A stretch of DNA of 24,660 nt. It comes from a virus (taxonomy: Duplodnaviria; Heunggongvirae; Uroviricota; Caudoviricetes). The DNA is taken from the IMG/VR virus record IMGVR_UViG_2534681934_000023. One strand, 5' to 3'. The position numbers were made by a program. This document shows positions 6,001 to 12,000 of the stretch, one piece after another. The first letter of the stretch is position 1. The number at the start of each line of letters is the position of its first letter.

Positions 6001-9000
6001 ATGGATACGAAAAGATCCGCTGGCCGGATGCACCGGGGTGGGCGAGCCGGGAAACCTGGCTGGAGAGTGTCCCGGACAGTACCGAACCGTCACCCTCACC
6101 GGAACCGGTATCCACGCCTGTTAAAAAACAAAAACGGAAGAAAACAGTAACTGACGATGTTAACCCCTGGCTGACTTCCGGAGGATGGTTATGAACCAGA
6201 ATGATATCGAAGCCATGATTCAGCGTTATACGGAAGCTGAAATGGCGGTGCTGGACGGAAAATCCGTCACCTTTAATGGTCAGCAGATGACCATGGAAAA
6301 CTTATCTGAGATCCGGCAGGGACGGCAGGAGTGGGAGCGCCGCCTTGCGGCTCTGATTACACGACGACGGGGGCATCCCGGGTACCGGCTGGCGAGGTTC
6401 TGATGGCAATTCTTGATGATGTGATTGGCGTTTTTTCACCAGGATGGAAAGCGGCAAGGCTGCGTTCCCGTGCGGTGATCCTGGCTTATGAGGCCGTAAA
6501 AACGACGCGGACACACAAAGCCCGGCGGGAAAACCGAACTGCCGACCAGTTAAGCCAGTACGGGGCCGTGTCGTTACGTGAGCAGGCCCGTTACCTTGAT
6601 AACAACCACGATCTGGTTATTGGTGTATTTGACAAGCTGGAAGAACGGGTGGTGGGGAAAAACGGGATTATTGTCGAGCCACATCCGGTATTACGCAATG
6701 GGGCCATTGCCCGTGATCTGGCAGCGGAGATACGCACCCGATGGAGTGAATGGTCTGTCAGTCCGGAAGTCACCGGGCAGTTTACCCGTCCGATGCTGGA
6801 ACGTCTGATGCTGCGTACCTGGCTGCGCGATGGTGAGGTGTTTGCCCAGATGGTTTCCGGGCGCATAAACAGCCTGACGCCTTCTGCCGGTGTTCATTTC
6901 TGGCTGGAGGCGCTCGAGCCAGACTTTATTCCCATGACCAGTGATGAGAGCAACAGGCTGAATCAGGGCGTGTTTGTTGATGACTGGGGGCGTCCCGAAA
7001 AATATCTGGTGTATAAAAGCCGTCCCTTATCCGGACGGCAGATGGAAACCAAAGAAGTGGATGCAGAGCGAATGCTGCATCTTAAATTTGTTCGCCGTCT
7101 GCACCAGATGCGCGGGACGTCTTTGTTGTCCGGTGTGCTGATCCGCCTCAGTGCCCTGAAAGAGTATGAGGATTCTGAGCTGACTGCAGCAAGGATCGCC
7201 GCTGCTCTGGGGATGTACATCCGGAAAGGCGATGGGCAGAGCTATGAACCGGATGGTAATGGCAGCAAGGATAAGGAACGCGAGCTTACCATTCAGCCAG
7301 GCATTATTTACGACGATCTGAAACCCGGCGAAGAAATCGGAATGGTGAAGTCGGATCGCCCCAATCCTAACCTTGAAACTTTTCGTAATGGTCAGTTGCG
7401 TGCCGTGGCGGCGGGCAGTCGTCTGAATTTTTTCCAGTACAGCGCGCAACTATAACGGCACTTACAGCGCCCAGCGTCAGGAGCTGGTTGAATCCACTGA
7501 TGGCTACCTGATCCTGCAGGACTGGTTTATTGGTGCCGTCACCCGCCCGATGTATCGTGCCTGGCTGAAACAGGCTGTGGCATCCGGTGTTATCAGGCTA
7601 CCCCGCGATCTTGACCGTTCTTCACTGTATACCGCGGTGTATTCCGGACCGGTGATGCCGTGGATTGACCCTGTTAAGGAGGCTGAGGCCTGGAAAATTC
7701 AGATTCGTGGTGGAGCAGCGACAGAATCAGACTGGGTACGTGCAGGTGGTCGTAATCCGGATGATGTCAAACGTCGGCGCAAGGCCGAAATTGATGAAAA
7801 CCGCAAGCTGGATCTGGTATTTGATACCGATCCGGCCAGTGATAAAGGAGGCAGCAGTGCCGCAACGAAACGACAGGAGCCGCAGCACACCGACGACCAG
7901 TCCGAAGAATAATTCCTGGTTCAGGATGCAGGCTGGTCACCAGAGTGACGCGGATATTTATATTTATGACGAGATTGGTTTCTGGGGTGTTACAGCGAAG
8001 CAGTTTATCAGTGATCTGAATGCACTGGGCGATATCACCCACATTAATCTCAATATCAATTCACCGGGTGGCGATGTCTTTGAAGGCATCGCCATTTTTA
8101 ATGCACTGAAAACACATGGTGCGTCCATTACCGTTTATGTCGACGGTGTGGCGGCGTCAATGGCGTCGGTCATTGCGATGGTGGGAAAACCGGTCATTAT
8201 GCCGGAAAACTCCTTCATGATGATTCATAAACCATTTGGCTTTACGGGCGGTGATGCGGAGGACATGCGCACCTATGCCGACCTGCTCGATAAAGTTGAG
8301 GCGGTTCTGTTACCCGCTTATGCACAGAAAACCGGGAAAACCACCGATGAAATTGCTGCCATGCTGGCGGATGAGACCTGGATGTCCGGTGCCGAATGTC
8401 TGGCACATGGATTTGCTGATCAGGTGACGCCAGCCGTTAAGGCAATGGCATGTATTCAGTCAAAACGTACAGAGGAATTTAAAAAGATGCCGGAATCCAT
8501 TCGAAACATGATTACTCCGCCACGCAACAGTGCTCCACGCGTACAGGATGATGGACCTGCAGCCTCCCGGACGCCAGTGCAGGCAGCAGCACCTGTGGTG
8601 GATGAAAACAGTATCCGTGCGCAGGTACTGGCAGAGCAAAAAGCGCGTGTAAACGGTATTAATGATCTGTTTGCCATGTTTGGCGGGCGTTATCAGACGC
8701 TGCAGGCTCAGTGTCTTGCCGATCCTGAATGTTCGCTGGAGCAGGCCCGCGAAAAGCTGTTGAACGAGATGGGGCGCGAGTCCACGCCATCTAATAAAAA
8801 TACCCCGGCTCATATTTATGCCGGAAACGGTAATTTTGTGGGGGATGGGATCCGCCAGGCGCTGATGGCGCGTGCCGGATTTGAAAAAACCGAACGTGAT
8901 AATGTCTACAACGGGATGACCCTGCGTGAATATGCCCGTATGTCACTGACTGAACGGGGTATTGGGGTTTCCAGTTATAACCCGATGCAGATGGTCGGTG

Positions 9001-12000
9001 CGGCGTTCACACACAGTACGTCTGACTTCGGTAATATTCTGCTGGATGTTGCGAACAAAGCCATTCTGCAGGGCTGGGAAGATGCCCCTGAAACCTATGA
9101 ACAGTGGACGCGGAAAGGTCAGTTGTCTGATTTTAAAATTGCCCATCGTGTGGGTATGGGGGGCTTCAGTGCTCTGCGTCAGGTGCGTGAAGGGGCGGAA
9201 TATAAATACGTCACCACCGGAGATAAACAGGCCACTATTGCACTGGCGACCTATGGCGAGCTGTTCAGTATCACCCGTCAGGCCATTATCAATGATGATC
9301 TGAATATGCTGACCGATGTCCCGATGAAACTGGGCCGTGCGGCGAAATCCACTATTGCCGATCTGGTTTATGCCATTCTGACGTCTAACCCGAAAATCTC
9401 CACAGATAATGTAAGTCTGTTCGATAAAGCGAAACATGCAAACGTACTGGAGAGCGCTGCAATGGACGTGGCATCGCTGGATAAAGCCCGCCAGTTGATG
9501 CGCGTTCAGAAAGAGGGGGAGCGTCATCTGAATATTCGTCCTGCGTTCGTACTGGTACCGACGGCGATGGAGTCTGTTGCTAACCAGGTCATTCGCTCCT
9601 CAAGTGTCAAGGGGGCTGACATTAACGCCGGTATTATTAACCCGGTGAAAGATTTTGCGACCGTTATTGCAGAGCCTCGTCTTGATGATAACAGCCAGAC
9701 CACCTTCTACCTGGCTGCGTCAAAAGGCTCCGATACGATTGAAGTGGCTTATCTCAACGGTGTGGATACGCCATATATTGATCAGATGGAGGGCTTCAGT
9801 GTGGATGGCGTGACAACGAAAGTGCGTATTGACGCCGGTGTCGCGCCAGTTGATCACCGCGGTCTGGTGAAATGTACGGCGTAAACGTCGCAGACAACAA
9901 CTCTGATGGCCCGTAAGGGCTTTTTTTGTACCTGAAATCAGCCCCTGAACGGGGCTGTGCGGAGACAGTTATGGCAAAGAATTTTGTAGAAGAAGGAAAA
10001 ACGGTGGCGATTGTTGCCAGTGCAGCCATCAGCAGCGGAGATCTGGTGCAGGTGGGCGATGTTTTTGCGGTGGCGCTGACCGATATTCCACAGGGTGAAA
10101 CAGGCGACGGCATGACCGAAGGTGTGTTTATGCTGCCTAAGCTGAAAACGGATGACATGAAAACGGGTAAGAAGGTTTATCTGAAGTCAGGAAAAGTTCA
10201 GCTGACTAACAGCGGCTCTGATCCGCTGGTCGGGGTTGTCTGGGCAGATGCCGGAACCAGTGCAGAAGAAGTGCCGGTAAAACTCAATGTCTGATCCCTT
10301 TTCCCGGCTGGCAGCGCGTATGGATGCTATCACGGTCAGAAAGATGGGAAAGACAGCCTCGATTAATGATGTCGATATGACTGTGATCCCGGGAGAAACA
10401 CTGGCAGAGCTGAATGCTCTGTCCGGACCTGCGGTCTCTCTGGTGGTGTTTTCTTCGGGATACCGCCCACGGCGCGGGGATCGCGATATGAACCGCCCCG
10501 GAAATCCTGGAGACTAAACTCCCTGAGAAAGAGGTAAACAGGATGACTAAAAATACTCGTTTTTCCCCCGAAGTCCGTCAGCGGGCGATTCGTATGGTTC
10601 TGGAAAGTCAGGATGAATATGACTCACAGTGGGCGGCAATTTGTTCCATTGCCCCAAAGATTGGCTGTACGCCGGAGACTCTGCGTGTCTGGGTTCGCCA
10701 GCATGAGCGGGATACCGGGGGCGGTGATGGTGGGCTCACCAGCGCTGAACGTCAGCGTCTGAAAGAGCTGGAACGTGAAAATCGTGAACTGCGCCGCAGT
10801 AACGATATCCTTCGCCAGGCTTCCGCTTATTTTGCGAAGGCGGAGTTCGACCGCCTCTGGAAAAAATGATGCCACTGCTGGATAAGCTGCGTGAGCAGTA
10901 CGGGGTCGGACCGGTATGCAGCGAACTGCATATTGCCCCGTCAACGTATTACCATTGTCAGCAACAGCGACATCATCCGGATAAACGCAGTGCCCGTGCG
11001 CAGCACGACGACTGGCTGAAGAGAGAGATACAGCGCGTATACGATGAAAATCATCAGGTGTACGGTGTGCGTAAAGTCTGGCGTCAGTTGTTACGGGAAG
11101 GAATCAGGGTGGCCAGATGTACAGTGGCACGTCTCATGGCGGTTATGGGACTTGCCGGTGTTCTCCGGGGTAAAAAGGTCCGTACGACCATCAGCCGGAA
11201 AGCCGTTGCCGCAGGCGACCGCGTAAACCGTCAGTTCGTGGCAGAACGACCTGACCAGCTGTGGGTGGCTGATTTTACTTACGTCAGCACATGGCAGGGC
11301 TTCGTCTATGTGGCGTTTATCATTGATGTGTTTGCCGGATACATCGTGGGGTGGCGGGTCTCATCGTCTATGGAAACGACATTCGTGCTGGATGCGCTGG
11401 AGCAGGCGTTGTGGGCCCGTCGTCCGTCTGGCACCATCCATCACAGCGATAAAGGCTCTCAGTATGTGTCACTGGCCTATACGGAGCGACTAAAAGAAGC
11501 CGGATTACTGGCATCAACAGGGAGTACAGGCGACTCGTATGACAACGCGATGGCTGAGAGCATCAATGGTCTTTACAAAGCGGAGGTAATACACCGTAAG
11601 AGCTGGAAAAACCGTGCAGAAGTGGAACTGGCCACACTAACGTGGGTGGACTGGTATAACAATCGACGATTGCTGGGAAGGCTGGGCCATACTCCTCCGG
11701 CAGAAGCAGAAAAAGCTTATTATGCTTCCATCGGAAACGATGATCTGGCAGCCTGAGTTCACAGATAAAACACTCTCCAGGAAACCCGGGGCGGTTCAAT
11801 ATCAGGTACAACTGAGTCTTCGCCAGAAATACCAGCAACAGCTGGAGCAGTTGAGGCGGGATAGTGAGCAGAAAGGGACATATAACACGGATGACTACAG
11901 AAAGGCCGAGCAGGCGCTGACGGAGAGCCTGAACCGACAACTGAATGAGAATCGCCGTTACTGGCAACAGCTTGAAGTTGTACAGGGTAACTGGAAAAAC

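Follow-up and report, generated by a model that had tools for sequence, protein, structure and literature searches.

The head genes of tailed phages are arranged differently in the systems against which the gene discussed here can be set. In phage lambda the protease, C, belongs to the S49 (SppA-like) family and its gene contains Nu3 in the same frame, whilst the coat protein E is encoded by a separate gene and belongs to a capsid family other than the one described below. In HK97 the protease is again the product of a separate gene, of the S78/U35 family, and the shell is stabilised by covalent chainmail. A third arrangement is found in Gifsy-2, where a single gene (STM1034.3n) encodes a precursor in the order protease, linker, helical segment and capsid; Effantin et al. 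are said to have described T=7 procapsids and capsids of this phage in 2010 (reportedly in Virology 402:355), modelled with HK97 gp5 and lambda gpD. A citing paper (PMC12315714) points to a 2010 description of the Gifsy-2 tripartite capsid gene, and another (PMC8538268) counts Gifsy-2 among the phages whose 3-fold axes are occupied by a trimeric cement protein. Here we examine a gene of this third type in a 24,660-nucleotide (nt) stretch of prophage DNA, IMG/VR record IMGVR_UViG_2534681934_000023 (hereafter the window), all features being given on the plus strand.

The gene occupies positions 7857..9884 (675 codons and a stop, with GTG 7857 the most likely start) and we conclude, with a probability of roughly 0.9, that it encodes an intact Gifsy-2-type tripartite capsid precursor which would mature in the manner expected from homology to Gifsy-2 and HK97. 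Two curated family models carry this assignment. The predicted protein matches NCBIfam NF045540 (ClpP-like prohead protease/major capsid fusion) over positions 2-651 of the 652 in the model, scoring 980.5 bits where the cut-off is 475, and matches phrog_133 over its full length (positions 3-667 of 668, 1198 bits). A BLASTP comparison with the Gifsy-2 precursor gave 70% identity over 669 aligned residues, thereby covering the whole length of the protein and all three of its parts, and this bears out the original prediction, made from the sequence of the window, that the gene matches the Gifsy-2 tripartite capsid gene. The two proteins are thus end-to-end homologues with the same order of parts. 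They differ in the sequence and length of the linker, in an 8-residue insertion that Gifsy-2 has in the junction segment preceding the capsid domain and in the start codon, which is ATG in Gifsy-2 and GTG in the window.

Relatives of the gene are numerous. Among sequenced phages, tblastn searches found 98.9-99.4% protein identity to mEp460, Tritos, cdtI, Ayreon, phi458 and others, ~77% to the Stx phages including VT1-Sakai, 74% to mEp213, mEp043 and LLS, 72% to Fels-1, 70% to Gifsy-2, 64% to Providencia phage PSTCR8lys and 57% to the Pseudomonas phages F10 and MD8. Within a library of representatives drawn from clusters at 50% identity, full-length matches at 35-60% identity were obtained for more than 100 clusters. 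At the DNA level many O157:H7 genomes carry a copy with 100% identity, and of 5426 complete E. coli genomes 2074 contain the gene; in these the Prokaryotic Genome Annotation Pipeline (PGAP) already names the product ClpP-like prohead protease/major capsid protein fusion protein. The gene type is therefore already known: it has been described experimentally, is curated in both NCBIfam and PHROG, and is widespread. A few distant relatives, for example P0166 (443 amino acids) and P0228 (468 amino acids), comprise the scaffold and capsid parts only, at 45-51% identity, and lack the protease domain; either an unfused, HK97-like form of the family exists as well or these gene calls are truncated.

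This distribution bears directly on the suggestion that the long open reading frame (ORF) is an artefact, in which separate protease, scaffold and capsid genes have been joined by frameshift, deletion or sequencing error. In favour of such an origin, the same element carries other lesions (a portal frameshift, a split J gene and a deletion adjacent to an insertion sequence, all discussed below), but the full-length architecture recurs in the functional phages mEp460, cdtI, Gifsy-2, F10 and MD8, as well as in the distant cluster representatives, and has its own curated full-length hidden Markov models. The sequence is, moreover, invariant across many independent O157:H7 assemblies, and the idea that genes were joined is contradicted by intact relatives, which lack separate genes at those junctions. 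We regard an artefact as extremely improbable and return to the precursor as a genuine single gene product.

The anatomy of the precursor was examined by domain searches and by an AlphaFold2 (AF2) model built from an alignment of 42 sequences, which gave a mean predicted local distance difference test score (pLDDT) of 82.6; an alignment of 12 close homologues gave a pLDDT of 36 and was unusable. Residue numbers follow the 675-residue protein unless stated otherwise, and conservation counts refer to 42 homologues at 33-95% identity. In Pfam searches numbered on the 652-codon reading that begins at ATG 7926, CLP_protease was matched at residues 23-168 (E 5e-36) and Phage_capsid_4 at residues 355-649 (E 1.4e-54), with a weaker match to Mu-like gpT. 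The AF2 model is laid out as a protease, a disordered linker, three helices, a disordered junction and a capsid domain. Together with the open frame, these searches uphold the proposal that one ORF of 652 codons carries a protease, a Pro/Ala-rich linker and a capsid domain, and the domain checks suggested at the time returned ClpP at the N-terminus and, at the C-terminus, a capsid family with the HK97 fold.

The N-terminal domain (residues 22-192; 7920..8432) has the ClpP fold and forms a block of pLDDT 84-96 in the model. Its catalytic residues Ser101 (8157-8159) and His124 (8226-8228) align to Ser111 and His136 of E. coli ClpP and are invariant across the homologues. It is followed by a conserved stretch at residues 193-220 and then by the Pro/Ala-rich linker (residues 221-247; 8517..8597), which is disordered with pLDDT below 50, is hypervariable in the alignment of close relatives and ranges from 6 to 44 residues, rich in A, P and T, amongst the homologues. 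A scaffold-like segment resembling a delta domain comes next (residues 250-308; 8604..8780), comprising three helices at 250-273, 280-288 and 294-308 in a block of pLDDT 80-91; the layout of disordered linker followed by three helices is itself conserved. Between this and the capsid domain lies the junction segment (residues 309-323; 8781..8825), whose sequence and length vary among homologues and whose pLDDT falls below 50 at 312-314 and 316-323. The remainder of the protein (residues 327-675; 8835..9881) is the major capsid domain, of the HK97 fold and the Mu gpT-like family, with a long spine-like helix at residues 483-510. As a single sequence the capsid part found only weak matches in the PDB (2e-4), but a seven-sequence profile of the C-terminal part matched the solved chain 8rkc, a Mu GpT domain-containing protein, at 9.5e-9.

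The protease had been described as ClpP/S49-like, and the first half of that label holds whilst the second does not. The head-maturation ClpP-related domain model NF045542 scored 215.9 bits against a cut-off of 120, whereas S49/SppA models matched weakly (SppA_dom, 22.3 bits against 155), and these family matches place the enzyme in ClpP/S14 (MEROPS S14), not S49. A ClpP fold raises a further question, namely whether the protein might be a cellular-type ClpP subunit serving host ClpX or ClpA with an unrelated C-terminal extension, as would suit those source annotations that read 'ATP-dependent Clp protease proteolytic subunit'. The models for cellular ClpP equivalogs nevertheless fall far short of their cut-offs (TIGR00493, for example, 61.7 bits against 308.6) where the head-maturation model passes; the C-terminal part is a capsid protein, and the gene sits between those for a portal and a cement protein. 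A cellular ClpP can accordingly be given almost no weight, and a head-maturation protease fused to its own coat protein is much the better description.

Several points weigh against reading the gene as a complete precursor that matures like that of Gifsy-2. The third position of the ClpP triad is changed, E. coli ClpP Asp185 aligning to Glu173 of the precursor, with Glu rather than Asp present in 36 of the 42 homologues. The central helical segment gave no significant match to Pfam or to a scaffold family in the Pfam search, so that its scaffolding role is putative, proposed from where the segment lies and by analogy with Gifsy-2 and HK97. The junction segment is a putative maturation-cleavage region, placed there by predicted disorder and sequence variability. 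The T=7 geometry and gpD-like trimers of Gifsy-2 are reported for that phage, and expression and processing of the copy in the window are predicted from homology.

The start of the gene needs some discussion, for the original prediction placed it at ATG 7926. From that codon the frame is open to the stop at 9882-9884, giving 652 codons, but the same frame is open upstream as far as 7656, and the ORF 7926..9884 comprises the 3' 652 codons of the 7857..9884 gene. A Shine-Dalgarno (SD) sequence, AAGGAGG, lies at 7845..7851, within the 3' end of the portal frame and 5 nt before GTG 7857, and its anti-SD duplex energy of -11.6 kcal/mol compares with -2.2 kcal/mol for ATG 7926. PGAP likewise starts the gene at GTG 7857 in identical O157:H7 sequence, and the same arrangement of GTG and SD is present in mEp460, ASU11 and mEp213. 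In Gifsy-2, Fels-1 and F10 the position matching 7926 does not encode Met; in each of them an SD-preceded start lies 96-99 nt 5' of it (-8.6, -6.6 and -9.3 kcal/mol, respectively). The proposed Met is Ile in 26 of the 42 homologues, whereas W21, the Trp of an SW[FY] motif encoded 5' of 7926, is found in 36. Because of the strong SD, the upstream starts in relatives and the conserved residues encoded 5' of 7926, GTG 7857 is most likely the true start, so that the gene and the portal frame share 56 nt, at the 3' end of the latter. ATG 7926 was rejected on the corresponding grounds: a weak SD, no Met in the three phages named and conservation of the residues upstream.

A different kind of start is also conceivable. 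Nested initiation at ATG 8487 (Met211) might add a protease-less scaffold-capsid product to the full-length precursor in the enterobacterial/Pseudomonas subfamily, and if so it would lower or set the ratio of protease to coat, as with lambda C and Nu3. A GAGGA motif lies ~10 nt before ATG 8487 (-6.0 kcal/mol), all eight phage homologues compared have Met211 preceded by a comparable SD-like sequence (-6.0 to -8.8 kcal/mol), and P0166 and P0228 are relatives with just such a protease-less composition. Set against this, the spacing from GAGGA to ATG 8487 is long and the motif is mostly dictated by conserved Glu-Glu-Phe codons. It is also unremarkable, since an energy of -6 kcal/mol is attained at five of the 47 in-frame start codons, a count that includes the true start. 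Across the wider family the position of Met211 is variable (Pro in 8, Met in 7, Ile in 7 and Val in 7 of 42), and no family-wide internal start was found among the 42 homologues. An internal start yielding separate proteins, which the original prediction had named as the observation that would tell against it, is thus not supported across the family, and we consider nested initiation unlikely even within the subfamily. The single full-length precursor remains the preferred product of the gene.

By homology to Gifsy-2 and HK97, the expected course of head assembly can be outlined. Copies of the precursor would co-assemble on the portal into a procapsid that holds their protease and scaffold parts on its inner side. 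Cleavage by the Ser101/His124 protease, within the variable junction or close to it (residues ~309-325), would follow, and the N-terminal ~310-325 residues would be removed and digested, the fragments leaving the shell. DNA packaging would expand the shell, and the cement protein encoded at 9971..10294 would bind its exterior and stabilise it much as gpD does in lambda. This last step would distinguish such a head from that of HK97, in which covalent chainmail stands in contrast to the cement protein that the window module encodes. The two also differ in their proteases, that of the window being ClpP/S14 and fused in cis, and no HK97-type arrangement, with a separate S78/U35 protease and a delta-capsid gene, was found in the window.

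Upstream of the precursor gene, Pfam and PHROG matches identify a DUF1441-type small terminase, a gpA-family large terminase, a small head-tail adaptor and a lambda-family portal. The portal gene (6331..7912) is read as two ORFs, 6331..7455 and 7550..7912, the first of which matches Pfam Phage_portal_2 at 1.1e-73. The split is due to an inserted nucleotide near 7426, one extra base relative to the intact portal of mEp460, and PGAP annotates two portal coding sequences in identical sequence; the DNA of the region is 98.8-99.6% identical to mEp460. Downstream, a consensus scan detected a terminator-like hairpin (GGCCC-GTAA-GGGCT followed by T7) at 9908..9928, between the capsid and cement genes. 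A rho-independent terminator is annotated at the equivalent site in mEp460 and mEp213, and the hairpin may tune the ratio of coat to downstream gene products.

The cement, or head decoration, gene is separate and lies at 9971..10294. Its product matches Pfam Phage_cement_2 (9e-21) and phrog_122 'head decoration' (1.8e-47), although a PDB sequence search with the protein returned no match, and the gene occupies the same position in Gifsy-2, mEp460, mEp213 and F10. Judged by these family matches, the product is the functional counterpart of lambda D. The original prediction had the fusion standing in for lambda C, Nu3, D and E; since the cement gene is separate, the fusion replaces C, Nu3 and E but not D. 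No separate protease gene lies between the portal and capsid genes, either among the ORFs of the window or in its annotation. Resemblances to lambda are nonetheless evident, in the place of the gene in the late operon after a gpA-family terminase and a lambda-family portal, and in the roles of protease, scaffold and coat, with the cement protein separately encoded. Unlike in lambda, the protease belongs to family S14 and forms a single polypeptide with the scaffold and coat parts. Amongst the Pfam matches listed, none to the gpE family was given for the coat domain (which matches Phage_capsid_4 and Mu gpT) and none to the gpD family for the cement protein (which matches Phage_cement_2). A lambda-type set of head genes, with S49 protease, nested scaffold, gpE coat and gpD decoration, was accordingly not found in the window.

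The order terminase, adaptor, portal, fusion, cement and tail is identical to that of Gifsy-2 and of mEp460. In Gifsy-2, as in the window, the start of the precursor gene overlaps a lambda-family portal gene that precedes it, and a cement gene and lambda-like tail genes come after; the Gifsy-2 late region is collinear through the lambda-like genes Z-U-V-G-T-H-M-L-K. The view of the window as a mosaic of a Gifsy-2-like head and a lambda-like tail is weakened by this comparison: because the tail genes of Gifsy-2 are themselves lambda-like and collinear, the combination is not mosaic relative to Gifsy-2. The lysis cassette (1610..2786), which encodes a class II holin, an RrrD-type lysozyme and Rz, does differ from that of Gifsy-2. 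Its identity to the corresponding cassettes of JLK-2012, 2B8, Ayreon, cdtI and 434 is 90-96%, and it is consistent in kind with the 'phage-21-like' description given to it, but as an argument for mosaicism it is weak, cdtI and Ayreon having a similar cassette together with the same head gene. On these comparisons, the combination of head, tail and lysis genes is ordinary lambdoid modularity. Similarity to mEp460, cdtI, Ayreon, Tritos and phi458 extends beyond the head gene to a near-identical flanking late region; where these phages differ from the window is in having complete genomes, an intact portal and a full annotated set of tail genes, the prophage in the window being degraded.

The defects of the prophage, which the original prediction had overlooked, comprise the split portal, an IS629 element beside which 4.8 kb (4815 bp) of tail genes is deleted, and a J gene that is likewise split. 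The insertion in J is again of 1 nt, at 15773, and lies inside a patch of clustered substitutions, whilst the IS629 deletion junction has no match among complete E. coli genomes. Taken together, the portal frameshift, the IS629-associated tail deletion and the split J mean that the element's own genes alone cannot build infectious particles: the capsid precursor gene is intact but its host prophage is defective. The window corresponds to an O157:H7 prophage with nleB2, nleC, nleH1-1 and nleD, and from this nle gene content we take the element to be Sp3/CP-933K-like. In strain Sakai, Sp3 was scored as portal-defective and showed no excision, replication or packaging (PMC2669165). Downstream of the tail-fibre genes, the region 20921..24660 is low-GC cargo (33-44% GC) encoding type III secretion effectors, namely NleB2 (20921..21901), NleC (21935..22954) and NleH1-1 (23770 to the end of the window at 24660).

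The importance of the gene is small beyond its correct annotation. More than a third of complete E. coli genomes have it, as do many sequenced phages. Its annotation should begin at GTG 7857 and name the product a protease/scaffold/major capsid precursor, not simply 'Clp protease' or 'head maturation protease', and the decoration protein should be annotated as a separate gene. As for the copy in the window, residing as it does in a non-viable prophage, it is relevant mainly as recombination material within the O157:H7 prophage pool, which carries the type III secretion effector genes nleB2, nleC and nleH1.

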